64,000 nt of DNA from Verrucomicrobiota bacterium (GTDB taxonomy: Bacteria > Verrucomicrobiota > Verrucomicrobiia > Chthoniobacterales > JAFAMB01), in NCBI GenBank assembly GCA_019247695.1, contig JAFBAP010000183.1, positions 301-64,300 on the forward strand, given 5' to 3'. Under the pieces are notes generated by a model. It saw only the letters and a list, made by a program, of their open reading frames with translations. It did no database searches and was not told the origin of the DNA. The position numbers and the translations under genes are program-made. Positions 10,984 to 57,885 of the stretch are shown piece after piece (position 1 is the first letter of the stretch; the number at the start of each line of letters is the position of its first letter).

Positions 10984-11169
10984 ATGAGGGTCCGCGAAGC
11001 AATCAAGCTCATCGAAAACGATGGATGGTTTCTGGTGCGAACACGCGGCAGTCACCGGCAGTACAAGCATCCTCAGAAGCCCGGCTTGGTCACGATCGCG
11101 GGCAAACCGGGTGATGAGCTTGCTCCTGGTACAACGAATAGTATCCTCAAACAGGCAGGATTAAAATGA
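10984..11169 (+). CDS. hicA: HicA-family mRNA interferase toxin
   Basis: 61 aa. Matches LIENDGWFLVRTRGSHRQYKHP...VTIAGKPGDELAPGTTNSILKQAGL, a typical HicA. ATGA overlap with the next gene. Confidence 0.9.
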   Translation: MRVREAIKLIENDGWFLVRTRGSHRQYKHPQKPGLVTIAGKPGDELAPGTTNSILKQAGLK

Positions 11170-11378
11170 ATCGGTATCTCGTCATCATCGAGCGGACCAG
11201 CAGCGGACTCTCGGCTTACTCGCCGGATTTGCCGGGCTGTGTGGCAACCGGAGCGACCAGGGAGGAGCTCGAACGGAAAATGCACGATGCGATCGAGTTT
11301 CACCTGGAAGGTTTGCGCCTCGAAGGTGAACCGGTTCCCTTGCCGCGGTCGGAGGCGACCTACTGCGAAGCAGGCTGA
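11166..11378 (+). CDS. hicB: HicB-family antitoxin (UPF0150-type N-domain only)
   Basis: 70 aa. YLVIIERTSSGLSAYSPDLPGCVATGATREELERKMHDAIEFHLEGL matches the HicB/UPF0150 fold signature. Confidence 0.85.
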   Translation: MNRYLVIIERTSSGLSAYSPDLPGCVATGATREELERKMHDAIEFHLEGLRLEGEPVPLPRSEATYCEAG

Positions 11379-13358: not shown

Positions 13359-14930
13359 ATGCTGAATCACCTCGATCGAATCTTTGCGCGTAAACCCGGT
13401 CTCGCCGGTTGGCTGCTGGCGTTGGTCGCGGGCTACGCCTGGGTACTGCTCCTGTGGCACTTGTCCGCCTTCTGGCGAGTCCTGGAGGACTACGAGTACG
13501 GGTGGGCCGTCCCGGTCCTGGTCCTCGCCCTGCTGTGGCGGCGGCGGCACCTGCCGGCACCCGAACCGAAGACGTCGGTCACGGCGTTTGCCGGTGTTTT
13601 CCTGGGCACGCTGCTGCTGCTCCCGTTGCGGATAATCCTCGACGCAAACCTGGATTGGCGGCCCGCCGTCTGGGCTTTGGCTGCAGTCGTGATCACGGTG
13701 ACCCTGTGCGCGATCTATCTGGCGGGAGGCAAACCGTGGCTGGCAGCTTTGGCGTTCCCCGCCCTTTTTGTCCTTACCGGCGTTCCCTGGCTGGGCAGGT
13801 TGGAACTCCCCATCACTTCCGGTCTCATGCGGTTTGGAGCGTTTGTCGCGACGGAATTGTTGAACCTTATCGGCGTGGCCGCCTGCCAGCGCGGGAGCGT
13901 GGTCGAAACCGCGGCCGGCCTGATCGGGGTCGATGAGGCGTGCAGCGGGATTAAAAGCCTGCAAACCATGGTTGCCGTAGGGCTCTTTCTTTCCGATTTT
14001 ACCGCTTGGCGTGGGCCCAGGCGTTTCCTGATCGTGCTCATCGGTGCGGTGCTGGCGACGGCGGCGAACCTTGGCCGGTTGGTCCTGCTCGCCTGGGTGG
14101 GCAGCCAGGGAGGTTCCGGCGGTGTGGAACGGTGGCATGACCCGGCGGGCGCCGTGGCATTTGCCGCGGCGTGCCTCGCGCTGGTGGCCATCGTACGCAA
14201 GCTGCCCGCGGCGCCGCCCGCCCCGCCGCCGGCGGTGCATCCGAGGCCGGCGATAGCCGCTTCCCGCCCTTCGTGGGCGTTCCCCGGCCTGGTTCTTTGC
14301 GTCCTCTGGCTGGGCGGGGCCGAACTGGTGCGTCTTTACTGGTTTCAGCCCCGCCAAGTCTCGGCCGGGGCACGCTGGACGGCGGTCTGGCCGGAACCTT
14401 TCAACGGGGCAGGTTTAAAAGTGCTGCGCGTCTCGGACGCCGTCCGCAACCAATTGCAATGCGATACCGGAAAGGCGGTGCGCTGGTCCGACCGGCCCGG
14501 TACGGAATGGATCGGTTACTTTTTCGAATGGCGCCCCGGTTTGCACGCCTACTTCGCACGCTCGCAGCACTCCCCGGAAATCTGCCTGCCTGCGACCGGC
14601 CGGCGCCTGCACAAGGACCTGGGATTCTTCGACATCAAAGCGCCCGGGCACCTGATCCAGGTTCACCACCTCCTGTTTGAAGACGACTCGGGCCCGTTGA
14701 ACGTCTTCTTTATCGTGGACGGCTCGGCGGTCCGCGACAACGTCGAGCAGCGGCAGGCCGGTTCCGTCACCGGCCGGCTCCGCAGCGTCTGGGAACGGCA
14801 CAAAGAGGCTGATCGCCGGTCCCTGGAGTTAATCGCGGCCGGTTACCTGACCCCGCAGTCTGCTCGAGAGGAAGCGCAACGCTGGCTGACGCAGATCATC
14901 CGTCCGGAAAACGGGCCGGTGACCCTGTAA
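13359..14930 (+). CDS. Exosortase fused to a C-terminal EpsI-family domain
   Basis: Multi-TM N-terminal half with the ordered exosortase signature: Cys (DEACSGIKSL), Arg (ANLGRLVLL) and His (ERWHDPAG). The soluble C-terminal ~190 aa resemble EpsI (HSPEICLPATG). Confidence 0.85.
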   Translation: MLNHLDRIFARKPGLAGWLLALVAGYAWVLLLWHLSAFWRVLEDYEYGWAVPVLVLALLWRRRHLPAPEPKTSVTAFAGVFLGTLLLLPLRIILDANLDWRPAVWALAAVVITVTLCAIYLAGGKPWLAALAFPALFVLTGVPWLGRLELPITSGLMRFGAFVATELLNLIGVAACQRGSVVETAAGLIGVDEACSGIKSLQTMVAVGLFLSDFTAWRGPRRFLIVLIGAVLATAANLGRLVLLAWVGSQGGSGGVERWHDPAGAVAFAAACLALVAIVRKLPAAPPAPPPAVHPRPAIAASRPSWAFPGLVLCVLWLGGAELVRLYWFQPRQVSAGARWTAVWPEPFNGAGLKVLRVSDAVRNQLQCDTGKAVRWSDRPGTEWIGYFFEWRPGLHAYFARSQHSPEICLPATGRRLHKDLGFFDIKAPGHLIQVHHLLFEDDSGPLNVFFIVDGSAVRDNVEQRQAGSVTGRLRSVWERHKEADRRSLELIAAGYLTPQSAREEAQRWLTQIIRPENGPVTL

Positions 14931-18609: not shown

Positions 18610-18622
18610 AATGCCACCGCAG

Positions 18623-18960
18623 AAAATGCCACAAATGGAAGACGGGTGTCGGGTGTCGGGTGTCGAGTTCGGAGTTCGGAGTTCGGAGTTCGGAGCGGCT
18701 TCGCCCCACGGGTCCTTAATCTGTGTCAATCTGTGTAATCTGTGGATGCTTCCTCTTTTCTGCGTCCTCTGCGTGTTCTGCGGATGATTCGGTCTTCCCA
18801 CCGTGTGAACGTGACCCTCGGGGTAGATCGGACCCGCTTCTACGATGCCTCCGAACTCCGAACGCCGAGCCCCGAACTCTTCCCCTTCCCGCCGCGGCTC
18901 TCCGTGTGACCGGCACTCGACACTCGACACTCGACACCCGTCTTCAATTTGTGGCATTTT
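18623..18960. repeat. Composite palindromic repeat element, copy 1 (full, with 46-nt TIRs)
   Basis: 18623-18668 is the reverse complement of 18915-18960 at 43/46 positions (hand alignment). Nested tandem 7-mers (GGTGTCG x3, GAGTTCG x4) are mirrored on the other arm. The 99-nt core at 18756-18854 is shared with copy 2. Confidence 0.85.
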
Positions 18961-18962
18961 AA

Positions 18963-20219
18963 ATGAATGTTCTCGTCGATAACGGTTTACCCGAACTGAC
19001 GAACCTGGGTGACCTGGCGATGTTAATGGCGGCGTGTCGCGGGATTCGCCGGAGGTGGCCCGGCGCGAGGATTTTTACGTTCGCCACCAGTCCCGAGCGC
19101 CTGAAGGCGACGTTGCCTGACGTGGCGGCCGTGGACCCGGTCGGCCGGGAATTATGGTCGCAAGCGGCCGCCCTGGGCTGGCTGGTGGAGACCAAGGTGC
19201 CCCGGCTGCAAGGCCCGGCGCGCGTCTACCGCAGGCTGACGGGCCGGCCTTCACTTGCACCCTTGATCGAACTCGGGGCGCGCAGCGATAAACCGCGCGA
19301 AGGCGCGGTCTCGGCGTTTCTGCATTTCCTCCGCGAAGTCGACCTTTACTTCTGGGCCGGGGGCGGCTACCTGGCCGATCCGTTCGGATCATTGGCCACC
19401 AAACTGGCCAATACGCTTGAGGCGCTGTCCGGGCGCAAGGTGCCGGCAGCAGCTTTCGGGCTGGGCATCGGCCCGCTTCACCGGCCGCGCATCCTCAGGA
19501 CCGTACGTGCAACGATGCGCAATCTTTGCGCGATCGGGGTTCGGGAAGGAAGTTCACTGCAACTGCTGCAAGGTTGGTCACTGGATGGAGCTGACCTGTG
19601 TCTGACCGGAGACGATGCCGTTGCCGGGGCATTTGCCGAGCGACGGCCGGCACTCGGGGATGCGCTTGGGGTCAGCATCCGGCTCGAGTACTACTCCGAG
19701 CTCGCCGCCCGGCACTTGGCGGTGATCAAGGAGGTGGCACATGAATTCTGCGTCCGGCAAGGCGCCGGGATGACCTCGATTCCGATCGCGCCGGGCGACT
19801 TCGCACCCAACGCGAGGTTGCGCGCCGGTGCCGTGCCCTTCGAGGCGCCCGCATTCGAACTCGGGGCGGTTTACGCGGCGATCCGCCGTTGCCGGGTGGT
19901 GATCACCGCTTCTTACCATGCGGCCGTCTTTGCGCTCTCGATGGGAATTCCCGCCATCGGACTGGCCGGCAGCGAATACTACGTCCAGAAATTCCGGGGA
20001 CTGCAGAAACAATTCGGGGGTATCCCGCGGCTGATCTTGTGCCGGGCGCAAACGCCGGTCGACGCGTTCCGGGATGAACTTCGCGAAGCGCTCACGGGCT
20101 TTTGGTCAGATGCGCCCCGGGTTCGTCCAAGCCTTCTGGCGGGCGCGGCGGCACAGGTTGCCATCAACGACGCGTTTCGTGAGCGCGTATTTGACCGGTT
20201 GGAGGCGCAATTCCGGTAA
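18963..20219 (+). CDS. Polysaccharide pyruvyl transferase family protein (WcaK/CsaB-like)
   Basis: 418 aa. Has NLGDLAML near the N-terminus, WAGGGYLADPFG, and GVREGSSLQLL, which are typical PS_pyruv_trans blocks. Confidence 0.7.
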   Translation: MNVLVDNGLPELTNLGDLAMLMAACRGIRRRWPGARIFTFATSPERLKATLPDVAAVDPVGRELWSQAAALGWLVETKVPRLQGPARVYRRLTGRPSLAPLIELGARSDKPREGAVSAFLHFLREVDLYFWAGGGYLADPFGSLATKLANTLEALSGRKVPAAAFGLGIGPLHRPRILRTVRATMRNLCAIGVREGSSLQLLQGWSLDGADLCLTGDDAVAGAFAERRPALGDALGVSIRLEYYSELAARHLAVIKEVAHEFCVRQGAGMTSIPIAPGDFAPNARLRAGAVPFEAPAFELGAVYAAIRRCRVVITASYHAAVFALSMGIPAIGLAGSEYYVQKFRGLQKQFGGIPRLILCRAQTPVDAFRDELREALTGFWSDAPRVRPSLLAGAAAQVAINDAFRERVFDRLEAQFR

Positions 20220-39743: not shown

Positions 39744-40469
39744 TTACGGGTAGCGCCGGCGTAGCAATCCCCTGATCAGGGCTACGCATGCATCCCAGAG
39801 CTCGTTGATCGAAAGCTTGGACCGAAGCAATGCACATTCAGGCAACGGTACGTCCGGATCGGCGAAACGCTTGGCTTCCCGCACCAAACGCTGCAACTCC
39901 GCCTGCAGCGTTTCGTCCGCGGCGGGTGCGGGCAACGGGCGCCCAAACGCAACGAAAATAAATGGGTTCTCCTGGTCCCGGAATTCGTACCGGAGCGCGC
40001 ACGGCAGGATGGCTGCACCGGCCCGGGCGGCAATGTAGGTGGCGCCCCGGCGGACCCGGATAGGTTCGTCGGGCGCCATCAACTTGCCTTGCGGAAAGAT
40101 CCATACCGCCGCGCCCGGCTGCTTGAGGAGCGCCTGCGCGTGCCGGACGGTGGCGAGCGCCTTTCCTGGGGCATCCAGGTCGACGCCGAAGGCGCCGGCA
40201 AAACGAAAAAACCAGTAACGCCGCAAGTGCCGTTCTTCCTGCACCACATAGAATCGTTTACGGAGCCGTTGCGCGGTGAGCAAACCGGCGACAAAACCAT
40301 CCCACCAATTCGTGTGATTGGCGCACACCACCAGGGATTGTTTCCGGCCCAGTGCTTGCAGGTTTTCGGCCCCGATCAGGTAGATGCCTTGGAACCGGCG
40401 GCGCAATGCCAGCCAGATAAGCACGCGCACAAGCAGGACGAACGAACCCTGGCGGCGCGCCTTCAGCAT
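39744..40469 (-). CDS. Lysophospholipid/1-acyl-glycerol-3-phosphate acyltransferase-family protein (PlsC-like)
   Basis: Has the HX4D-type block CANHTNWWDG and a later FPQGK block. Overlaps the crtB stop by 7 nt, so it is the last gene of the carotenoid operon. Confidence 0.8.
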   Translation of the reverse strand: MLKARRQGSFVLLVRVLIWLALRRRFQGIYLIGAENLQALGRKQSLVVCANHTNWWDGFVAGLLTAQRLRKRFYVVQEERHLRRYWFFRFAGAFGVDLDAPGKALATVRHAQALLKQPGAAVWIFPQGKLMAPDEPIRVRRGATYIAARAGAAILPCALRYEFRDQENPFIFVAFGRPLPAPAADETLQAELQRLVREAKRFADPDVPLPECALLRSKLSINELWDACVALIRGLLRRRYP

Positions 40470-41404
40470 GCGACCGCGGATCCGCGGTTGTTGGCCCGGG
40501 TGCGCCGGTAGTCGCGGTACGCCCGTCCGGCCAGGGCGATTTTACGCGCGAGTGAGGTGCTGGCACGCTTCCGGAAAACATCGAATTGCTGTTTTTCAAT
40601 CTCCTCCAGAATGCCGGCGTAGATATGGCGCATCATCCAGACCGTAACCTGGGAACCATCATCGGCCAGCATCGGGATTCCGGCCTCGGAGCGAATGTAG
40701 AAGGCCCGCGCCCGCGCGATTTGAAACTGCATTAATTGCCGGAAAGGTTCTGTAACTCTGCCGCACGCCGCGTCCTCGATCTTCACCCCGAAGCGGGCCA
40801 GTTCATCCGCCGGCAGATAAACCCGGCCCCGTTCCCAATCTTCGCGGATGTCCCGCAGGATGTTGGTCAACTGCATGGCAATCCCCAACTCCACCGCGTG
40901 CTCGGCGCCATCATGGCCACCGGCGAGGCCCAGGACAGGGCACATCGCCAGCCCAACCACCGAGGCCACATGATAACAGTACCGGCGAAGCTCATCCCAC
41001 GTCCGGAGTGCGATCGGGCCGGCGTCCATCAGCACCCCTCGGGTTAGGTCCAAAAACGGTTCCGGAGGTATCCGATACGACTTGACGGAATTGGCAAACG
41101 CGAGGGCAAACGGTGGGCCCGGCACCTCCCCGGAAACCAGGCCCGCGAATTCTTCACGGACCCGGGCAACCAGTTCGGCACCGTTGTGTCCCGGTTGCCG
41201 CTGATCAATCAGGTCGTCCAGGTAACGGCAAAAGGCGTAGAGCGAGTACGCCGCGACTCTCTTACCTTTAGGCAGTGCGAATGAGGCAAAATAAAAGCTC
41301 CGGGCATGCCTGCGGGTGTTCTCCCGGCAATAGCGCTCACTTGCCGCAAGCGTTACATGAGCGGCCACATCCGGCCGGCGGCACCCTGCAGAGATAGCAA
41401 ACAT
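40463..41404 (-). CDS. crtB: Phytoene (or related squalene/phytoene-family) synthase
   Basis: Motifs SFYFASFALPKGKRVAAYSLYAFCRYLDDLID and AMQLTNILRDIREDWERGRVYLP, the two Asp-rich regions of the SQS/PSY family. Confidence 0.85.
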   Translation of the reverse strand: MFAISAGCRRPDVAAHVTLAASERYCRENTRRHARSFYFASFALPKGKRVAAYSLYAFCRYLDDLIDQRQPGHNGAELVARVREEFAGLVSGEVPGPPFALAFANSVKSYRIPPEPFLDLTRGVLMDAGPIALRTWDELRRYCYHVASVVGLAMCPVLGLAGGHDGAEHAVELGIAMQLTNILRDIREDWERGRVYLPADELARFGVKIEDAACGRVTEPFRQLMQFQIARARAFYIRSEAGIPMLADDGSQVTVWMMRHIYAGILEEIEKQQFDVFRKRASTSLARKIALAGRAYRDYRRTRANNRGSAVAC

Positions 41405-41429
41405 AGCCCTGAACTGGTTTCCCTGGCGA

Positions 41430-42995
41430 TCATGCCAGAATGTCCCGGCGGGTCGAGCTTAAACCCGCCGTCGCCCCCGGCGCCGGCACCACCCGGTCCA
41501 ACACTTTGGCGCTGCAGAGCACCCCCGGCAGGCCCGCCCCGGGATGGGTACCGGCGCCAGTGAAATAGAGCGCCTGCACATCTTCACTGACGTTATGGGG
41601 TCGGAACCAGGCGCTCTGCGTGAGAACCGGTTCGAACTGGAACGCAGATCCTGCGTATGCATCAAGTTCGTACTCAAAGTCCGCAGGCGTCATGATGCGC
41701 CGTGTGACGATATGACGGCGCAGATCCGGGCACCACCGTTCCAACGAGGCCAGAATTTGCTCGGCATACGCTTCCTTGACGCCGGCCCAGTCCACGCGCC
41801 CCTGCAGATTCGGCACCGGTGAAAGGACATAGAAGCATTCACAGCCCGGCGGTGCCAGCGTCGGGTCAGTCCGGGTCGGTGCGTGCAGGTAGACTGAAAA
41901 GTCGGAGGCCAGAACCTTGCGGCTGAAAATGTCCTTGAGCAACTCGCCGTAACGCTCGGTCAGGATGATCGTGTGGTGGGCCAGGTCGGGGTAGGTGCGG
42001 TCCGTGCCGAAGTACACGACAAACAGGCCCATTGAATAGCGCATCCTTTGCAGGCGTTGGTCGGTCCACTTCCGGCGCCACTCCGGCGCGATCAGTTTTC
42101 GGTAGGTGTTCGCCGTATCCCCGTTTGACACGACCAGCGCGGTGCGGAACTCGGCGCCGCCGGCCGTCCGTATCCCGGTCGCGCGTCCCCGCTCCACCAG
42201 GATCTGCGACACCGGCGAGTTCAGGTGCAGCACGCCGCCCATCTCGCGAAAGAGTTGCACCAGAGCGTTAACCACTGCCCCGGTGCCGCCCATCGCGAAA
42301 TGCACCCCCCACTTCCGCTCCAGAAAGTGAATCATTGAATAGATCGAACTTGCCTGAAACGGGTTGCCGCCGATTAACAAGGGGTGAAAGCTGAACACCT
42401 GGCGCAGTTGCGGGTCCTGCAGGTAACGGCAGATCAGCCCGTAGACCGATTCGTGCGAGCGCAGGCGGATAAGATCCGGCGCAATTCTGGCCATGTCCCG
42501 GAAAGTCGAGAATGGCCGGTCAGCCAGGTCCACGAACGCACGCCGGAAGATCGCCTCAGATTGCCGGACAAACCGGCGGTAACCCGCGACGTCAGCACGG
42601 TTGAACTTCTCAATTTCGGCGAGGATGCGGCTTTCGTCGCCGGTGTAATCAAACCGGCGGCCGTCAGGAAAAAGGATTCGGTAATACGGGTCGCAGGGGA
42701 CGATCCGCAGGTAATCGGCGAGGTTTCGCCCAGCGAGCGTGAACAGTTCCTCGATCAGGAATGGCGCCGTAATAATGGTGGGACCTGCATCAAACGTAAA
42801 CCCGTCCTGTTCATAAACGTACGCCCGGCCGCCCGGTTTATCCCGCATTTCGAACAGGTGGACCTGGTAGCCGCGCGCCTGCAGACGAATCGCGGCCGCC
42901 AACCCGCCAAAACCGCTCCCGATCACCGCCGCCCGGAGCTGAGGGCCAGGCCGTTCGGCTGATGAAGGTGCGACCGCTGGCGTGCACGTTGTCAT
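41430..42995 (-). CDS. crtI: Phytoene desaturase (CrtI-type FAD oxidoreductase)
   Basis: Motifs AAVIGSGFGGLAAAIRL, PGGRAYVYEQDGFTFDAGPTIIT, and C-terminal YFTGAGTHPGAGLPGV. Confidence 0.9.
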   Translation of the reverse strand: MTTCTPAVAPSSAERPGPQLRAAVIGSGFGGLAAAIRLQARGYQVHLFEMRDKPGGRAYVYEQDGFTFDAGPTIITAPFLIEELFTLAGRNLADYLRIVPCDPYYRILFPDGRRFDYTGDESRILAEIEKFNRADVAGYRRFVRQSEAIFRRAFVDLADRPFSTFRDMARIAPDLIRLRSHESVYGLICRYLQDPQLRQVFSFHPLLIGGNPFQASSIYSMIHFLERKWGVHFAMGGTGAVVNALVQLFREMGGVLHLNSPVSQILVERGRATGIRTAGGAEFRTALVVSNGDTANTYRKLIAPEWRRKWTDQRLQRMRYSMGLFVVYFGTDRTYPDLAHHTIILTERYGELLKDIFSRKVLASDFSVYLHAPTRTDPTLAPPGCECFYVLSPVPNLQGRVDWAGVKEAYAEQILASLERWCPDLRRHIVTRRIMTPADFEYELDAYAGSAFQFEPVLTQSAWFRPHNVSEDVQALYFTGAGTHPGAGLPGVLCSAKVLDRVVPAPGATAGLSSTRRDILA

Positions 42996-44089
42996 GAGGT
43001 TTGAATGAGGCGTCGGATCGTTTGCAAAAGATTGTGCAGTCCGGTCTGGATTTCGGGCCTGAGCATCGGTGATTCGATCGCCAGGCAGGTTTGCTGGAAT
43101 AATTGTTCCACCACCGCCTCCTGCTCGGCCACTGCCTCGCTCTTCACGATGAGCCGTTGCATCTGACGGAGATCCGATGCGGTGCGTGACTTCTGACCCA
43201 GCAAGTTACGCAACTGCATGCGGTCTTCCGGCCCGAGGCGATCGTAAGCGGTGCATAATAGCAAGGTCTTTTTACCTTCTACCAGATCATCGCTTAACCC
43301 GCCCTGAACCCCGCGCACGAATTCTTTCAAGTCGTTCTGAATCTGAAACGCCAGACCGGCCGGCTGCGCCACGGCAGCCAACTGGCGCAATTCCGTTTCC
43401 GTAAGGCCGCCGATGATTCCGGCCAGAACGAGCGGGCATTCGAAGGTGTACCGGGCGGTCTTGCATTGATACATCCACTTGATCTCCCTTGCGCTTACCT
43501 GCGAAATACAACCCTCGCCCAGCAGGATGTCGGCGATCTCGCCATAACCCGTATCAAAAACGTAATCCAGAAGTTTCGAAAGCAAGGTTGCACGGACCGG
43601 GATCCGCGTATCGATGATGCATTTCTGGGCTAACGCAAAAAGCAGGTCTCCGAAAACGATCGTCAGGTTAGAACCGGTGCGGGCCGGTTGGCCGCCCTTA
43701 CTTCGGTCTTCGAGGGAACGGTGCAGCGACGGCAAATCACGCCGGAAATCAGAACTATCGATCAGGTCGTCGTGGATCAGCACGAACGCGTGCAACAATT
43801 CCAGACCGGTCGCAACCGACACAAGCTCATTAAGCAGATGCGCCGATTCTGCTGGCTGGAACAGCTCCGCTGCCTGGAGAAACAGGAGAGGCCGGATGCG
43901 TTTGCCGGGCCTCCGCATATACTCCAGAAGCGCTTCATGAAAAAGGTCCAGGCGTTTGTCGCGGTATAGCTGGGTTAACCCGGCCAACTTGCGTACGAGT
44001 TGGTCGTCTACCAACCGGCGAAAAACCTGCGGGTGAGTAGGCGTGAAATCCTCCGCCGGTAGTCCCTGAGTTAACGGTGCCACGTCCAA
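42992..44089 (-). CDS. Polyprenyl diphosphate synthase family protein (CrtE-like position; atypical second Asp-rich motif)
   Basis: Only the C-terminal ~365 aa of the 753-aa ORF look like this family (GKRIRPLL, FARM LIHDDLID). There is no in-frame ATG upstream of the GKR motif; the candidate starts are TTG 44089 and GTG 44083. ATGA overlap with crtI. Confidence 0.7.
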   Translation of the reverse strand: MDVAPLTQGLPAEDFTPTHPQVFRRLVDDQLVRKLAGLTQLYRDKRLDLFHEALLEYMRRPGKRIRPLLFLQAAELFQPAESAHLLNELVSVATGLELLHAFVLIHDDLIDSSDFRRDLPSLHRSLEDRSKGGQPARTGSNLTIVFGDLLFALAQKCIIDTRIPVRATLLSKLLDYVFDTGYGEIADILLGEGCISQVSAREIKWMYQCKTARYTFECPLVLAGIIGGLTETELRQLAAVAQPAGLAFQIQNDLKEFVRGVQGGLSDDLVEGKKTLLLCTAYDRLGPEDRMQLRNLLGQKSRTASDLRQMQRLIVKSEAVAEQEAVVEQLFQQTCLAIESPMLRPEIQTGLHNLLQTIRRLIQTS

Positions 44090-44124
44090 AAATACGCGAG
44101 GTGTAAATATTTGGATGCTCAGGC

Positions 44125-44456
44125 GGGTTCGGAGTTCGGGGTTCGGGGCTCGGAGCCGTCGTGGAACCGGGTCCGATCTCCTCCGAGGGGCACGCTCACA
44201 TGGCGGGAAGGCAGAATCATCCGCAGAACACGCAGAGAACGCAGAAAAAGAATCCCAAACGCTGGACCTGACAGCGGCAGCCGGCACCCATGATGCCGCT
44301 CCGCACTCCGAACTCCGAACTCCGAACTCCGAACTCTCCTCCTCCCGCCGTGGTCGCCGTGGTCCGCCGTGTTCGCCGTGTGAACTCTGTCGCCGTGCCC
44401 GCCAATCCCGCTGTGCCCGCCGTGTGACCGAACTCCGAACTCCGAACCCCGAACTC
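44125..44456. repeat. Composite repeat element, copy 2 (core inverted relative to copy 1)
   Basis: The core at 44150-44248 is the reverse complement of 18756-18854 at 86/99 positions (hand alignment). It is flanked by GTTCGG(A/G) repeats (44127-44155) and CTCCGAA x4 (44306-44333), then a CGCCGTG(G/T)T tandem module (44344-44429) and more CGAACTC repeats. Confidence 0.85.
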
Positions 44457-44509
44457 ATTGCAGCCCGGGCACACCGGCGTATGGTGATCCCGGTAACCCA
44501 TTTGCCTAC

Positions 44510-45631
44510 ATGACGTTTGCCGAACGCTTCCGTGATCCGAACCGCACCTTGTCCGCCAGCGCCCAATCTTTCCGACGCCTTCTGGAACCTTTGTCGAATC
44601 CGGGTCTGGAGGCGTTGGCGCAGCGCGCGGCCGCCATCACCCGCAAGCATTTCGGGCGCACGATGCGGTTGTTTGCACCGCTTTACTTGTCCAACGAGTG
44701 CATCAACAACTGCGCCTATTGCGGCTTTTCCCGTGACAACCCTATCCTGCGGGTGACCCTGACGGTCGAGCAGGTCCTGGCTGAAGCCCGTTACCTGGCC
44801 GATCGGGGCATCCGCAATGTCCTGCTCGTCTCCGGTGAGCACCCCAAGTACGTGTCCAACGGGTACCTGGCCTCCGTGGTGGCCGCGGTCCGGGACGTGA
44901 TTCCGGCGGTATCCCTCGAAGTGGCGCCGATGGAGGTGGAAGATTACCGCCCCCTGGTGGCCAACGGCGCGGAAGGGCTGGTCGTTTACCAGGAGACTTA
45001 CGATCGCGCCATCTACCGGGAAATGCATACGTCCGGGCCGAAACGCAATTTCGATTGGCGCCTGGAATGTCCCGAACGCGCGTTTGCCGCCGGGTTCCGG
45101 CGGCTGGGGATAGGCGTCCTTTTCGGCTTGGGGGATTGGCGGACGGAAGCGATGCACTTGTTTGAGCACGTGGAATTTCTGCTGCGCAAGTGTTGGCGGG
45201 CACAAATCACGGTAAGCTTGCCGCGATTGCGCCCGGCGGCGGGCGACTTTCACCCGAGGACGACGTTTTCAGAACGCGAACTCGTCCAGCTGGTCTGCGC
45301 GCTCAGGGTCATGCTCCCGCAAGTCGGTCTGGTTCTCAGCACCCGCGAACCGGGGCCCCTCCGGGATGCGCTGATGCCGTTGGGAATCACGATGATGAGC
45401 GCGGGCAGCTGCACGGCGCCGGGAGGCTATACCGGCCAGGGCTGCGAATCGCTCCACCTCACGGTTCGCGGCCGTGCCACGGCCGCCACGAATGTCCCTG
45501 GGAAAGCCGAAGCGCAGTTTGCCATCGACGACGATCGCTCGCCTGAAGAGGTCGCCGCCACGTTGACCCGCCTCGGCCTTGAGCCGGTTTGGAAGGATTG
45601 GGACCCGGCTCTCACCCTGGCGGACGCATGA
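44510..45631 (+). CDS. thiH: 2-iminoacetate synthase ThiH (radical SAM)
   Basis: Radical SAM motif CINNCAYC. Family blocks LYLSNEC, LLVSGEHP and VYQETYD. Confidence 0.9.
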   Translation: MTFAERFRDPNRTLSASAQSFRRLLEPLSNPGLEALAQRAAAITRKHFGRTMRLFAPLYLSNECINNCAYCGFSRDNPILRVTLTVEQVLAEARYLADRGIRNVLLVSGEHPKYVSNGYLASVVAAVRDVIPAVSLEVAPMEVEDYRPLVANGAEGLVVYQETYDRAIYREMHTSGPKRNFDWRLECPERAFAAGFRRLGIGVLFGLGDWRTEAMHLFEHVEFLLRKCWRAQITVSLPRLRPAAGDFHPRTTFSERELVQLVCALRVMLPQVGLVLSTREPGPLRDALMPLGITMMSAGSCTAPGGYTGQGCESLHLTVRGRATAATNVPGKAEAQFAIDDDRSPEEVAATLTRLGLEPVWKDWDPALTLADA

Positions 45632-52281: not shown

Positions 52282-52343
52282 GAGAACTCGAAATTACCGG
52301 GAGCCAGCCCGGTTTGCAAATCGCTGTGGCGGGTCGCGGGTAA

Positions 52344-52463
52344 GGTTCGGAGTTCGGGGTTCGCAGCGGCAGTGTGAAGGGCAAACGTCCATCGCAGCCC
52401 CAAATCCGAAAGTAATCCGCCTTCCCGCCGTCAGCCCCGTGTTCCGCCGTGGCGCCGTGTGAC
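52344..52463. repeat. Composite repeat element, copy 3 (miniature, lacks the 99-nt core)
   Basis: GGTTCGGAGTTCGGGGTTCG (52344-52363) plus ...CCTTCCCGCCG...GTTCCGCCGTGGCGCCGTGTGAC (52419-52463). Shares the heptamer and the CGCCGTG/CCGTGTGAC modules with copies 1 and 2. Confidence 0.7.
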
Positions 52464-52490
52464 AAAAAAGGCGCCGTAAGACGGCGCCTT
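52464..52490 (-). terminator. Rho-independent terminator of rplM-rpsI
   Basis: On the minus strand: AAGGCGCCGT-CTT-ACGGCGCCTT followed by TTTTTT. Located 26 nt after the rpsI stop. Confidence 0.85.
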
Positions 52491-52515
52491 CTGAAAATCT
52501 TGCCGGAACGAAGGC

Positions 52516-53447: not shown

Positions 53448-54878
53448 ATGAAACGCGTCATCCACTGGTTCCGCCGCGACCTTCGGATTTCGGACAATAC
53501 CGCCCTTTACCATGCCTGCAGGGCCGGCGACGAGGTGCTGCCTCTCTACGTCGTGTCGACGTGGAAAGGCCGCCATCCCTGGACCGGCCCGAGCCGCCAG
53601 CAATTCTTGTGCGGCTGCCTGGATTCATTGGCCAAGAACCTGGCCCTGGTCGGAGGGCGCCTCATCATCCGGATCGGTGAACCGTGCGCCGAGCTCGAAC
53701 GTTTGGTCAAAGAAACCTCTGCTGAAGCGATTTATACCAACCGCGGGGTGGACCCTTTCGACGTGACATTGGAAAGCTGTCTCGAAAAAAGGGCGCGCGA
53801 CTGGGGCATCGAATTCCACCGGTTTCTTGACGTGACGATTCAAGCCCCCAATGCCGTCCTGACCCGGTCCGGGCAGCCCTTTCGCGTTTTCGGTCCCTAC
53901 GCGCGCGCCTGGCAGGGCGTCCCGCGTCCGGCGGTACTACCTAAAATCGACCGGTTACATACCCCGGGGACTGTCCCCAGCGAACCCCTTCCCACCCTTG
54001 CCCACTGGAACCTGCAACCCGAAGCCAGCATCGTCGAACCGGGCGAGAAGGCGGCCCGGAATCGCCTCAGACAGTTTCTGGATGGCCCGATCTTCGAATA
54101 CGCTGCTAAACGCAACCTGCCGGCCGAGGCGGGCAACTCGCGACTGTCGCAAGACCTGCGCTGGGGCACGCTCTCGCCCCGTCAGGTGTTAACCGCGGCC
54201 GAAAGACTCCTGCACGGCGGTGATGCCGCCCAACGCCGGAGCATCGGAGCGTTCATCAATGAGCTCATCTGGCGCGAATTCTATCTGCAGATCCTTTGGC
54301 ATTACCCCGAAGTGGTGCATCAGAATTTCGTCCACGGCCTTGATGCGCTGGCCTGGGACGACGACGAAGCCGCTTTCCGCCGTTGGCGTGAAGCCGCCAC
54401 TGGTTTCCCGATCGTCGATGCCGGGATACGCGAGCTATTGGCCACCGGCTTCATGCATAACCGGCTGCGCATGATAACGGCCATGTTCCTGACCAAGGAT
54501 CTGCACGTGCACTGGAAGCGGGGCGAACAGTTCTTCTGCCGAAAACTTGTCGACGGTGAAATCGCGTCCAACAACGGTGGATGGCAATGGAGCGCTGGGA
54601 CGGGGGCGGACGCAGCGCCCTATTTCCGGATCCAGAACCCATGGACCCAGACGAAGCGTTACGATCCCGAAGGCGTGTACATTAAGAAATGGGTACCCGA
54701 ACTCCGCGACGTGAAGCTGATCGACCTTATGCGGCCCCCAAACAGCCCGCTGATTAAAGGTTACCCTCTGCCCATGGTCGACCACGACCGCGAACGGGAG
54801 TTAACCGTCGAACGGTTTCAGCGGGCTCAACAAGGTAAGGCGCCGGAAAAGACGGATTGCCGTGACCCATTTCCGTAA
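53448..54878 (+). CDS. phr: Deoxyribodipyrimidine photolyase / cryptochrome-family flavoprotein
   Basis: ATG at 53448 (the ORF opens on TTG 53421). Motifs IHWFRRDLRISDNTAL, WREFY, TGFPIVDAGIRELLATGFMHNRLRM and NNGGWQW. Confidence 0.9.
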   Translation: MKRVIHWFRRDLRISDNTALYHACRAGDEVLPLYVVSTWKGRHPWTGPSRQQFLCGCLDSLAKNLALVGGRLIIRIGEPCAELERLVKETSAEAIYTNRGVDPFDVTLESCLEKRARDWGIEFHRFLDVTIQAPNAVLTRSGQPFRVFGPYARAWQGVPRPAVLPKIDRLHTPGTVPSEPLPTLAHWNLQPEASIVEPGEKAARNRLRQFLDGPIFEYAAKRNLPAEAGNSRLSQDLRWGTLSPRQVLTAAERLLHGGDAAQRRSIGAFINELIWREFYLQILWHYPEVVHQNFVHGLDALAWDDDEAAFRRWREAATGFPIVDAGIRELLATGFMHNRLRMITAMFLTKDLHVHWKRGEQFFCRKLVDGEIASNNGGWQWSAGTGADAAPYFRIQNPWTQTKRYDPEGVYIKKWVPELRDVKLIDLMRPPNSPLIKGYPLPMVDHDRERELTVERFQRAQQGKAPEKTDCRDPFP

Positions 54879-54901
54879 GGGTTAGCCGGGCACCACGGCG
54901 T

Positions 54902-55924
54902 TCAACCGCTCTCTTCCACCGGCACGGCACGGCCACGGCGCCACACAAACCAACCCCCGACCGCTTTCTCATCCGGCGGATCCCCGGCGGTCACCCCAGC
55001 CTCCCTCAAGTGCTGCGTCGTCCGCGGCCGCACCCGCGCCCCCTGCTCTTCCACAAACGCCCGGCGGCCCAGCACCAGCCCGTAGGTCAGAAATCGCAGC
55101 CGGCACCTCAGCCGCTCCAGCCACGACAGCGCCCCCTGTTCCTGCTCGACCACCCGGCGGGCTGCCTCCAGGCCCAGCGCCGCTTGGCCCGCCTGCGAAC
55201 TGACCACCCCCGTACGATACAGCAATCGCCGGTAGGCCGCCTGCACCTCCGTCCAGTCAGCCCCTGTCTGCGAATCGTAACCCAAGGCGCGCGCAAGCCC
55301 TGCCCGCAACCGGCCTGCCCCCACCGCCTCGCCATAGCCGCAGTAACGGTAATCTTTCGGGTCAGCGCATAATCCAGCCCGCACCGGATTGAGGTCGATG
55401 TAGAGGGCCACGGCCGTCAGCGCTACGCCCCCGTCGACCAGCAGGCTTTTGAATCGTTCGGCCCACAGCGCCCCGTAGCGATCGTGCTTGCGGTTGTACC
55501 ACTGGGCAAAGCGGCTTTTGAGCTCCTGAAGGAAGCGGGACAGGTCGAACATACGCGCTTGGTAGCTTCGCCGTAAGGTTTGGGCAGCTAGCTCGCCTCC
55601 GGGCGTCTTGCCTTGCAGCACCCGCTCGTCGGTGTTGCGGCGTTCCGGCCCATAGAGGGCCTCGACCCGGTCCAGCAACTCCGGGTCGGACAGGAGACGG
55701 GGTTGGGGCACTTCGCACAAGATATGGAAGTGATTGCCCATAAGGGCGTAAGTGAGAATCGTGATGCCGCTGAAAGCCGCCAGCCCGTGCAGAAGGCGTA
55801 CGAAGTACTCCGCTTCTCCGGAGCCGTACCCGGTGGTTTTAAAGATGAATTCGCCGCCGGTGATGCGCGACAGGCAGTGGTAAAAGCAGGTGGGGCCGGG
55901 GCCTTTGAGGCGGGCGAGACGCAT
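54902..55924 (-). CDS. HUH/Y1 transposase-like protein (IS200-like, RAYT-type) with long C-terminal extension
   Basis: HUH motif GNHFHIL, plus QWYNRKHDRYGALWAERFKS and the Tyr-helix block ALYIDLNPVRAGL. These are characteristic of REP-associated tyrosine transposases (COG1943). Confidence 0.8.
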   Translation of the reverse strand: MRLARLKGPGPTCFYHCLSRITGGEFIFKTTGYGSGEAEYFVRLLHGLAAFSGITILTYALMGNHFHILCEVPQPRLLSDPELLDRVEALYGPERRNTDERVLQGKTPGGELAAQTLRRSYQARMFDLSRFLQELKSRFAQWYNRKHDRYGALWAERFKSLLVDGGVALTAVALYIDLNPVRAGLCADPKDYRYCGYGEAVGAGRLRAGLARALGYDSQTGADWTEVQAAYRRLLYRTGVVSSQAGQAALGLEAARRVVEQEQGALSWLERLRCRLRFLTYGLVLGRRAFVEEQGARVRPRTTQHLREAGVTAGDPPDEKAVGGWFVWRRGRAVPVEESG

Positions 55925-56000
55925 GGGTCAGGCGAATTCATAACTCATAAAAACAAAGTTGCAAATACGGATTCTCATTCCCCTTGCCCTGGCGGCAATT

Positions 56001-56446
56001 GGTCTGTCCCTATCGATCCACGCCAACCAGCGACCGCGCTCCCGCGGGTCGCCCCAACCGAGGCCGGGCGCCGATAAAACATCGATCAATTAGGCCTGTC
56101 CGCATCGACGAATAATGGCCAGCTCCGGTAAGCGGGTCTGTCCCGGTCGCCCCACAAGACGTGCCCACCCGTATTACCCTCCCCGACTTGGGCGCAGCGC
56201 CGGGCCAAGGTTGGCCAAATGGGCCGATTTAGCCCGCTGGCGCTCCGGCTGCGCCGCCCCCGGGAAACCTCCGGTACGGGGACAGGCCAGATTATACGAC
56301 GGGGACAGGCCAGATGATACCAGGGAGCGGCCTACAAGGGCCAAGGCTCTCCTCCAGATCGGAAGAGCGGGTCCGTTCTTCCTTGGACCCTGGGCGTACA
56401 TAGGGACAGGCCCGTTTTTCTCCTAGGGACAGGTCCGTTTGTTTCC
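56001..56446. repeat. Noncoding tract with 7 copies of a GGGACAG(G/A)(C/T)C motif, including two 23-bp tandem pairs
   Basis: Minus-orientation copies are at 56001, 56093 and 56134. Plus-orientation copies occur inside the tandem pair ACGGGGACAGGCCAGAT(T/G)ATAC (56276, 56299) and the tandem pair TAGGGACAGG(C/T)CCGTTT(T/G)T(C/T)TCC (56401, 56424). Confidence 0.75.
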
Positions 56447-56592
56447 CGAGTGTGGAATGACGAAAGGCGCAATGACTTGGAGGTTTCTGCCTCGTAATCG
56501 CTGGCACCCGGCACAGTACCGCGGGTACCCCGGACCTAGTGCAATCTCGAAGGACGTGTTGTGAGAGTACCCGGGCCGTGGTAAGCTCGACG

Positions 56593-57696
56593 ATGGAGCC
56601 TCCGTTGTTTGTGCGGCCCTTGACGGCCGAAGAAGTCCAGCAGCTGCGCGCCGGCCTGCAGTCCCGGGACGCCTTCACGCTGCGTCGCTGCCAAATCCTG
56701 CGGGCCAGCGCCCAGGGCCAACGGCCGGCCCAAATCGCCGCCGCCCTGGGCTGCGCCTCCCAAACGGTGCGCAACACCCTCCACGCCTTCGAGCAGCAAG
56801 GGCCCGACTGCTTGACGCGGGGCTCCAGCCGGCCCCACTCGGCCCACCGGCTGCTGGACGCCCCGCGGGCCGAGCGCTTACGGGACTTGCTGCACCAAAG
56901 CCCGCGCGCCTTCGGCTACCCCCAGAGCCACTGGACGTTGCCACTGGCGGCCGAAGTGGCTTACCAGCAGGGGCTCAGCGAGCGGGTGTTGAGTGCTGAG
57001 ACGGTGCGGCAGGCCATCCAGCGGCTGCGCCTGGGCTGGAAGCGGGCCAAGCAGTGGATCACGAGCCCCGACCCGGCCCACGAGCGAAAAAAAAAGCCCG
57101 GGCGCGGCTCTTGAGGTTAGCTGAGGCGCACCCCGACTGGGTGGTGGGTTTTGTCGATGAGACCTGGTGGAGCCGGTTGGCCCGCCCGGCGCTGCACGCC
57201 TGGAGCGGGCCGGAAGGGCCCTTGCGGTTAGAAGAACTTCAGGCCGACAAGGACGACCCGGACCCTAAAGCCCTCTGCTGTTACGGGTTGTTGCGGGCCG
57301 ACACCGAGGCCATCTGGCTGCGCTTCGTGCAAGGCCGGCCGGTTAGTCAGGTCACCGAGGATTTCCTGGGCTGGGCCTGCGAGCGGTTGGCCGCCGAAGG
57401 GCGCCGGGCCCTCTTGTTAGTTTGGGACAACGCGGCCTGGCACAAGAGGAGAGCGGGTGCGCGCCTGGATTCGGGCGCAAAACCGGCGGCTCAAACGCGA
57501 AGGGCGCGTGCGCATCGTGGTTTGCGCCTTGCCGATCAAGAGCCCGTGGCTCAACCGGATCGAGCCTTACTGGGTGCACGGCAAACGCGCCATCCTCGAA
57601 GCGGACCGCAAAGTGACGGCGGCCGAAACCATCGAGCGGGTCTGCGCTTACTTCGGCTGCGAAAGCTTCCCGCCGCTTGCCCAACAGCTCAATTGA
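56593..57696 (+). pseudogene. IS630-family transposase split over three reading frames
   Basis: Frame 1 (56593-57114) holds the HTH part. Frame 0 (to ~57445) holds the first two DDE residues. Frame 1 again (57457-57696) holds the final E. The first shift is at an A9G run; the second has no slippery motif. Confidence 0.7.
57087..57096 (+). promoter_or_regulatory. Candidate -1 programmed frameshift site (A AAA AAA AAG) in the IS630 transposase
   Basis: An A9G run lies exactly where frame 1 (ERKKKPGRGS*) must change to the -1 frame (RAKKKARARLL...) to continue the transposase. Confidence 0.5.
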
Positions 57697-57885
57697 AACT
57701 GCACTAGGGCAGGGCAGGAACGTTTGTCCCCGCCCCCTTACTCTGCAGACGCGGCGCTTGGGTTGAAGCGGCTCAGGGGCCAGACGAGAGCGCCATGATG
57801 ACTCCACACCGCTCGCGGATTAGAGGAATCCGTTTCGCGCAGGGTGTAAATTATCCGTTTGATCCGCAGCGTGTATTAGTTATTT

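Follow-up and report, generated by a model that had tools for sequence, protein, structure and literature searches.

The cyanobacterial STRR (short tandemly repeated repetitive) sequences are tandem arrays of heptanucleotide repeats. Here we analyse a repeat that is likewise built in part from heptamer arrays and that occurs twice, around a 99-nt core, in a 64,000-nt stretch of DNA from a Verrucomicrobiota bacterium (contig JAFBAP010000183.1, positions 301 to 64,300; hereafter the window), with copy 1 at 18610-18962 and copy 2 at 44125-44456. Among the closest described systems, the REP (repetitive extragenic palindrome) and BIME (bacterial interspersed mosaic element) sequences of Enterobacteriaceae are extragenic mosaic repeats whose basic unit is an imperfect palindrome of 20-40 nt, set in alternating orientation with defined linkers (PMC3184786). 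The TAACTGA arrays of Beggiatoaceae, Cyanobacteria and Bacteroidetes are direct repeats in fixed orientation just upstream of start codons, with 1 inverted set among 170 (PMC4679880). A literature search found no description of the family that we report, which is apparently an undescribed mosaic repeat of the REP, BIME or MITE (miniature inverted-repeat transposable element) kind.

In our view it is highly probable that the two window copies are members of a modular repeat family, non-coding and dispersed, that is found in a Chthoniobacterales-like lineage of Verrucomicrobiota, is organised as nested palindromes, spreads by copying and settles in stop-side spacers, and in which the apparent flip of the core between the two copies results from the loss of arms.

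Architecture of the repeat family

The core of copy 1 (18756-18854, plus strand) and the reverse complement of 44150-44248 in copy 2 agree at 86/99 ungapped positions (87%), the same value that the original prediction had reached by hand alignment. A 23-nt block, TCTGCGTGTTCTGCGGATGATTC, is identical in both cores, at 18768(+) and 44214(-), and gave 0 matches in 100 shuffles of the window. Motif positions confirm a second claim of that prediction, namely that both copies show on the plus strand the same order of a GTTCGGA array, a CTCCGAA array and a CCGCCG…CCGTGTGACC module. They also confirm that the core has opposite orientations relative to the CCGTGTGACC module in the two copies, which are homologous. 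An additional CCGAACT array (44428-44456) is found only in copy 2.

Further members were collected by scanning metagenomes with an 18-mer of the core (module B), and they come mostly from one metagenome, Ga0213876. The scan returned at least 116 metagenome loci; among the matches listed, about 95 are from Ga0213876 and the others are chance matches inside genes. Also among the matches listed are 96 mutually non-overlapping family loci (793 kb) that hold at least 180 element clusters, 43 of which touch a locus end, and 134 B modules. The set of species-representative genomes, from which the window genome is absent, yielded one real relative, a partial element in a Verrucomicrobiota metagenome-assembled genome (MAG; L003). 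No family member was found in the viral contigs scanned, where a single chance match fell in AT-rich DNA. The window itself lies within ENA assembly ERZ27313880 (contig k141_569389), and its best named protein homologues are from Chthoniobacterales. Its organism is also present in run SRR8113284.

To derive the grammar of the family, ten modules and three types of heptamer were located by fuzzy matching. At full length an element measures 150-485 bp and forms a nested imperfect palindrome, in which inverted, outward-facing layers enclose an asymmetric centre. The outermost layer is a terminal motif, (A/G)AATGCCACAAATG(G)AAGAG, in short AAATGCCACAAATG; at the base of the stem, element termini have a short run of A and a short run of T. 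Inside the terminus lie GGTGTCG or GGTAACG heptamer arrays, then C1 (CGCCGTG-type 9-mers ending CCGTGTGACC) and then GTTCGGA arrays. Written with < for inverted and > for direct layers (the core being the reference), a full-length copy has this order:

<terminus <(GGTGTCG/GGTAACG)n <C1 <(GTTCGGA)n [A or A', B, then C2 or C3 or nothing] >(CTCCGAA)n >C1 >(heptamers)n >terminus

Any layer may be missing on either side of the centre, and about 18 clusters have the terminal motif at each end. Arm similarity is higher within one element (0.848) than between elements (0.788), the observed value being reached in 1/300 permutations. Since modules A and B, too, consist of degenerate 9-mer arrays, array sequence makes up most of the 99-nt core as well. 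The centre of the window copies is A or A' with B and C2. Other centre types occur, and the outer layers are also found around unrelated centres, two types of which recur between loci.

These alternative centres, each at two loci with the outer arms unchanged, are L073:3636-3821 with L050:5819-6126 and L091:8783-9065 with L042:3467-3732; both copies of each type are mutually reverse-complementary as read in the fetched loci.

In the window the family is represented as follows.

18610..18962 (+): copy 1, a complete element that fills the spacer from the stop codon of an ABC-2 permease gene (18609) to the ATG of a pyruvyl transferase gene (18963)
44125..44155 (-): heptamer array of copy 2, GTTCGGA-type on the plus strand, 4.1 units
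44150..44248 (-): core of copy 2, 99 nt, comprising module B TTTTCTGCGTTCTCTGCGTGTTCTGCGGATGATTC, linker CTTCCCGCC and module C2 (…CTCGGAGGAGATCGGACCCGGTTCCACGACGG)
44249..44298 (-): module A' GTCAGGTCCAGCGTTTGGGATTC and junction GCGGCATCATGGGTGCCGGCTGCCGCT of copy 2, the 'variable segment' upstream of the core
44299..44336 (+): CTCCGAA array of copy 2, 5.4 units, inverted partner of 44125-44155
44337..44429 (+): C1 arm of copy 2, CGCCGTG-type 9-mers (CTCTCCTCCTCCCGCCGTGGTCGCCGTGG … GCCCGCCGTGTGACC), the upstream, inverted arm in core orientation
44428..44456 (+): outer CCGAACT array of copy 2, 4.1 units
52340..52465 (+): third, core-less family member, a GTTCGGA array with a C1-type module (CTTCCCGCCGTCAGCCCCGTGTTCCGCCGTGGCGCCGTGTGAC)

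Copy 1 opens with an inverted terminal motif, AAATGCCACAAATGG, and continues through (GGTGTCG)3, (AGTTCGG)4 and module A (TAATCTGTG x3, a 9-mer array) into the core. Downstream of the core come (CTCCGAA)4, a mini-C1 (18880-18913) that is an about 35-nt short version of the CCGTGTGACC module, (CACTCGA)3 and the terminal motif TTGTGGCATTT. The predicted fold of this copy is one long imperfect-palindrome hairpin (free energy -185 kcal/mol; z = -11.9 against shuffles), that of copy 2 is weaker (z = -2.1), and simpler family members are also predicted to fold as long hairpins. In copy 2 the array at 44125-44155, read in core orientation, is the downstream CTCCGAA array, and the A' variants recur at five metagenome loci (L015, L026, L027, L109 and L118). 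A short-read contig from the source sample (L006) begins at the outer CCGAACT array, which indicates that the assembly breaks at the repeat.

Probable arm loss and the apparent flip of the core

The original prediction had proposed that recombination between the inverted heptamer arms turned the core around, with independent assembly of modules as the fallback, and had suggested aligning further copies and tabulating core orientation against the CCGTGTGACC module. We made this tabulation for 35 cores of the window type (B with C2 or C3), with the following outcome.

C1 on both sides of the core: 8/35
C1 upstream only, inverted, as in copy 2: 10/35
C1 downstream only, direct: 10/35
C1 detected on neither side: 7/35, a class to which the scan assigns copy 1 because its mini-C1 is too short to detect, and which by eye is the downstream-only class in the case of copy 1

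A C1 arm that is mis-oriented next to the core was seen in 0 of the 35 cores, and C1 is therefore a symmetric arm and not part of an asymmetric frame. Copy 1 kept a minimal C1 downstream only and copy 2 a full C1 upstream only; different arms, seen from opposite strands, give the appearance of a flipped core, and no inversion is needed. The flip thus most likely reflects which arm each copy retained rather than an inversion of DNA, an outcome close to the fallback of module assembly. The whole architecture of copy 2 moreover recurs at an unrelated locus (L038:13570-13888, 82% identity over 324 nt), suggesting that this arrangement travels as a unit.

Orthologous loci point the same way. At the copy-1 locus, a MAG whose ThiH is 76% identical (L130) has a 99-nt spacer without the element. 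Two 82% relatives (L128 and L129) have a truncated element in which the arrays, A and B stand in the window orientation and are followed directly by the ATG. Aligning L128:930-960 to window 18768-18965 shows module B passing directly into CAA-ATG, with 171 nt of the window (C2, the CTCCGAA array, mini-C1, heptamers and terminus) cleanly absent. In a 76% relative (L127) only 30 nt upstream of the ATG are on the contig, and the visible ATG-proximal end consists of two copies of the terminal motif. Upstream of thiH, the site of copy 2, the spacer of the same Chthoniobacterales MAG (L125) is 129 nt long and contains no module. An 84% relative (L124) has no element either, and a 94% relative (L131) has a different array (CCGTTAC) adjacent to the same promoter, its contig breaking at this array. 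These comparisons indicate an element that is lineage-specific, long-lived at its locus and stable in orientation, and whose module content changes fast.

We accordingly think it extremely unlikely that the family is an invertible switch, in which the centre between the inverted GTTCGGA and CTCCGAA arrays would flip and turn a promoter or 5' leader to either neighbouring gene, as in phase variation. Such a switch would fit the inverted arrays that flank the core in both copies, the equal size of the two one-armed classes (10 and 10) and the location of copy 1 in a polysaccharide cluster, a typical setting of invertible promoters. However, the eight two-armed copies explain both one-armed classes through arm loss, and the at least 180 clusters lie in all gene contexts, including 29/97 elements between convergent genes, where there is no start to regulate. 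The orientation of the core bears no relation to gene starts (Fisher p=0.75), a scan of 44000-44600 gave no sigma-70-like promoter, and Pfam scans of nearly all predicted window genes gave no serine or tyrosine recombinase (resolvase, integrase). Orientation at the copy-1 locus is retained in relatives at 82% protein identity (L128 and L129) while modules change, and a short-read contig of the source sample (L007) links the flank via the left array to the core, in the single orientation of the window. Both orientations at one locus were seen neither at the copy-1 locus (window, L128 and L129) nor in L007, which is limited evidence.

Gene context and possible effects

Genes at the family loci were called with a home-made codon-usage model, trained on long open reading frames (ORFs) of these loci with the elements masked. 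Elements were distributed over the spacer types as follows.

Codirectional: 51 spacers with an element, 388 in all, 147 of at least 50 nt
Convergent: 29 with an element, 69 in all, 45 of at least 50 nt
Divergent: 17 with an element, 93 in all, 68 of at least 50 nt

This distribution differs from that of all spacers (chi-square, p=4e-5) and of spacers of at least 50 nt (p=0.02), convergent spacers making up 30% of those with elements against 12.5% and 17%, respectively. The median distance from a stop codon to the element edge is about 5-6 nt, with 52/117 stop-side flanks within -10 to +10 nt, while the median from a start codon is 48 nt. In 34/117 stop-side flanks the stop codon is inside the element, often as the TAA of GTAACGG arrays (for example in L012, L025, L112 and L119), and TAA or TAG accounts for 37/52 of the edge stops compared to a background of 50% (p=0.002). 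The element seems to reshape the 3' ends of genes.

The core has no such preference for starts. Between codirectional genes 16 cores point with the genes and 12 against them; the flank on the 3' side of the core is a start in 45 cases and a stop in 54, and on the 5' side a start in 29 and a stop in 39 (Fisher p=0.75). That both window cores point to a start is what chance allows. The distance of 70-120 nt once given for the two cores was approximate, the values being 109 nt (+) for copy 1 and about 61 nt (-) for copy 2. The suggestion that the core belongs to the 5' untranslated region (UTR) or promoter of the gene it faces is not supported, given this lack of orientation bias, the 29/97 convergent elements and the position of the thiH promoter candidate outside copy 2 (see below).

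A related proposal, that the core is a cis-regulatory or small structured RNA (leader, riboswitch or small RNA) serving the gene it points to, is in our view very unlikely. The 87% identity of the window cores and their pointing to a start codon 61-109 nt away speak for it. So does the end of copy 1 only 3 nt before the ATG of 18963, as a result of which the mRNA of 18963 must include element sequence. However, no Rfam 15 family was matched at gathering score in the whole window, and at E<=10 just four matches below that score turned up in the two element regions, all to unrelated families (small nucleolar RNAs, a long non-coding RNA region and the CPEB3 ribozyme). The core folds no better than its shuffles on either strand (z -0.14 to +1.84), and RNAalifold on 27 copies gave a consensus of -9 kcal/mol with 11 pairs and 0 compensatory changes. 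The absence of an orientation bias toward starts counts against an RNA role as well. As a small ORF the core fares no better: only 4/13 substitutions between the window copies fall at third codon positions, single-base indels break the frame and no frame is conserved. Inspection by eye discarded three further candidates, namely a sigma-54 -24/-12 promoter in TGGCAT (wrong spacing), an IHF (integration host factor) site (no match) and a DnaA box (TGTGGAT, only 7/9).

The 41-aa ORF that a public gene call has within copy 1 (L126:1322-1447, equal to window 18784-18909; MIRSSHRVNV…) is an annotation artefact, since family copies do not keep its frame.

Copy 2 lies between the divergent genes for a polyprenyl synthase and ThiH, with the following neighbours.

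42992..44089 (-): polyprenyl synthase, the real gene, with a TTG start at 44089 or a GTG start at 44083
44459..44486 (+): candidate thiH promoter TTGCAG-N16-TATGGT, about 1 nt outside copy 2, past one spacer base
44510-45631: thiH, Pfam Radical_SAM and BATS

An ORF of 753 aa (42992..45253, minus strand) does exist across this region, and the original prediction rightly took it for a spurious fusion of the repeat to the polyprenyl synthase gene, which arises because the arrays of the element lack stop codons. Only the last ~365 aa are polyprenyl synthase, with a Pfam match at residues 52-313 of the 42992-44092 product and orthologues of 361 aa; the remainder crosses the repeat and runs antisense to thiH.

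Scans of 44000-44600 found 0 sigma-70-like promoters and 0 terminators. An alignment of four genomes with differing spacers upstream of thiH has TTGCAG-N16-TATG(G/C)T in common, from which we infer that the match at 44459-44486 is a candidate for the thiH promoter. Since this candidate is outside copy 2, the element would lie upstream of the predicted transcription start and not in the leader. Copy 2 may occupy the gap between two divergent core promoters, with the conserved -35/-10 candidate of thiH left untouched. A thiamine pyrophosphate (TPP) riboswitch, possibly to be expected before thiamine genes, was not detected upstream of thiH-thiS in the Rfam scan.

The polyprenyl synthase gene belongs to a carotenoid- or squalene-type cluster (39744-44089, minus strand) that is syntenic in relatives and also encodes an acyltransferase, a phytoene/squalene synthase and a phytoene desaturase-like oxidase. 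Copy 1 lies in a very large polysaccharide locus (window 1-39400) with ~15 glycosyltransferases, two pyruvyl transferases, an ABC-2 exporter and Poly_export/SLBB, together with an EpsH-type exosortase (13359-14927), a Wzz-tyrosine-kinase-like protein and a priming sugar transferase. A small ORF within this cluster, 11166-11375(+), encodes a HicB-like antitoxin (Pfam E=9e-9).

Once transcribed, elements would most likely either serve as 3'-UTR hairpins, which shield mRNA ends or work like terminators, or be without any effect. A stronger version, that the long hairpins are domesticated as bidirectional terminators or mRNA 3'-end stabilisers of the preceding genes, like enterobacterial REP elements, is possible, but we are doubtful of it. 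It would account for the enrichment between convergent genes, for element edges so close to stop codons (median 5-6 nt) that there is no space for another terminator, for the very stable predicted hairpins and for the short A-run and T-run at the stem base of the termini. On the other hand, the elements lack a terminator-quality T-rich tail, consistent with the empty terminator scan around copy 2, and 17/97 of them, copy 2 included, sit between divergent genes. The two arms show no correlation in unit count, relatives get by without an element at each of the two window loci, and neutral insertion tolerated only behind stop codons predicts an equal position pattern. The third, core-less member is found beside a separate canonical terminator: it adjoins the intrinsic terminator (hairpin and T-run, 52466-52500) of rplM-rpsI on the minus strand.

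Mobility and likeness to known systems

Two transposase-related features were found in the window. The protein encoded at 54905-55924(-), 340 aa, resembles a RAYT (REP-associated tyrosine transposase): it has an IS200-like Y1 transposase domain with an HUH motif (HFH) and the sequence YIDLNPVRAGL…DPKDYRY. It matches Pfam Y1_Tnp with 26.3 bits (cut-off 23) and the C-terminal half only of NCBIfam REP_Tyr_transpos (E=2e-13, 50.4 bits against a cut-off of 80). The second feature is a degenerate element of the IS630 family (56529-57714) with a helix-turn-helix ORF (56539-57111), a DDE_3 fragment (57457-57693) and 33-nt inverted ends that are 73% complementary. It was rejected as a parent of the family, its termini being unrelated to the family termini.

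Between the RAYT-like gene and the IS630 copy, 600 nt are non-coding and hold a cluster of seven GGGACAGGCC-like motifs (56000-56440): first three on the minus strand, then four on the plus strand, with two 23-nt tandem pairs among them. This could be a cluster of binding sites or an element end.

That the family is a classical MITE or a REPIN (REP doublet forming a hairpin), with whole elements moved by a dedicated DDE or Y1 'RAYT' transposase (such as 54905-55924) that recognises the AAATGCCACAAATG termini or the arm hairpins, is conceivable, though we rate it as rather unlikely. Many copies do have well-defined inverted termini at both ends, even around different centres, and the size of 150-485 bp, the high copy number, the presence or absence at orthologous loci and the RAYT-like gene with its HUH motif in the window are all as such a system would have them. 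Y1 enzymes (IS200/IS605 and RAYT systems) are compatible with a lack of target duplication, which also counts in its favour. Against it stand the below-cut-off NCBIfam score of the RAYT-like protein and the unrelated inverted termini of the IS630 copy. Neither transposase has a homologue in the 793 kb of element-rich loci. Modules differ at one locus between 94%-identical relatives, a pattern that suggests recombinational turnover more than clean transposition. Two ideas about the insertion site were discarded: a TA duplication flanks copy 1 on both sides, is not found at other copies and stems from TAA/TAG stop codons, and an ancestral site of overlapping TAAATG is contradicted by the 99-nt spacer of L130.

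Other observations are awkward for the modular, copied family that we favour, and some of them tell against classical transposition as well. There is no consistent target-site duplication across copies, the terminal motif finishes just 55/212 tabulated element ends (about a quarter), the others ending in heptamer arrays or C1, and no family module was found beside the RAYT-like gene in 53500-56500 except for a 2-unit chance match. No cognate autonomous element was found. The heptamer unit counts of left and right arms show no correlation, so that selection for a perfect hairpin would be weak, and the separate terminator beside the third member means that a terminator role is not general. A symmetric element has the same grammar before and after inversion of its centre, so that a past inversion of copy 2 is compatible with it. 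Finally, the loci were picked via the B-module 18-mer, mainly from a single metagenome, and the spacer statistics depend on the home-made gene calls.

We nevertheless prefer a dispersed modular repeat that spreads by copying. Its arrays may arise and change length by replication slippage, and whole elements or modules would be copied between loci through recombination, through gene conversion or by a putative enzyme that works on hairpins. Selection could then confine the elements to spacers, chiefly behind stop codons. A more elaborate scheme seems improbable to us: a self-propagating hairpin element, moved by a Y1 RAYT-like enzyme (such as 54905-55924), in which each inverted layer is an independent unit with a preference for inserting at the loops or edges of hairpins already present ('Russian-doll' growth), co-opted as the standard 3'-end hairpin of hundreds of genes in the lineage and sometimes supplying the stop codon.

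These results remove a false lead, since the polyprenyl synthase/thiH spacer very probably harbours neither an invertible switch nor a leader RNA. They also document, in a soil phylum that has been little studied, a very abundant and seemingly undescribed repeat family. Short-read assemblies break at this repeat, with contigs that end inside elements, and it yields long false ORFs and shifts gene-start calls, so masking it would help the annotation of Verrucomicrobiota MAGs. Its nested inverted arrays of 7 and 9 nt, stop-hugging edges and fast module turnover at a fixed locus make it a tractable case for how mosaic repeats form and persist.

Set beside invertons, the element is alike as a segment bounded by inverted repeats between genes, with one copy inside a polysaccharide cluster. 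It differs in that no promoter was detected, no recombinase was found and no orientation polymorphism was seen, and in that hundreds of copies occupy all gene contexts. The STRR and TAACTGA sequences share with it short arrays of 2-6 or more heptamer units, nearly all intergenic, at >100 sites per genome, with mixed heptamers and assembly breaks. Here, however, the arrays flank a centre as inverted pairs, are without orientation bias and lie preferentially on the stop-codon side, and both the units (GTTCGGA, GGTGTCG and GGTAACG) and the phylum are different.

The resemblance to REP and BIME sequences lies in an extragenic location, hundreds of copies, mosaic motifs in alternating orientation, hairpins and a concentration behind gene 3' ends, and both mislead ORF callers and assemblers. 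In contrast to the 20-40-nt palindromes of those repeats, the units of this family are 7- and 9-nt tandem arrays with non-palindromic modules, and its arms are hundreds of bases apart, nested around an asymmetric centre. The two have no sequence similarity and belong to different phyla. REPIN-RAYT systems (PMC3116915) likewise spread within a genome as inverted repeats in one long hairpin, leave no target duplication and have a RAYT-like gene as in the window; the present family, however, does not flank that gene and has multi-layered elements with heterogeneous ends instead of a fixed REP doublet. MITEs such as the Correia elements (PMC3184786) are similar in being 150-500 bp long and intergenic, in sharing inverted termini despite different interiors and in their presence/absence polymorphism, but here there is no consistent target-site duplication, many copies are without the terminal motif at one or both ends, and a parent insertion sequence with the same ends was not found. 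In its lifestyle the family agrees with REP/BIME sequences, REPINs, MITEs and heptamer arrays alike, but it fails at least one defining feature of each.

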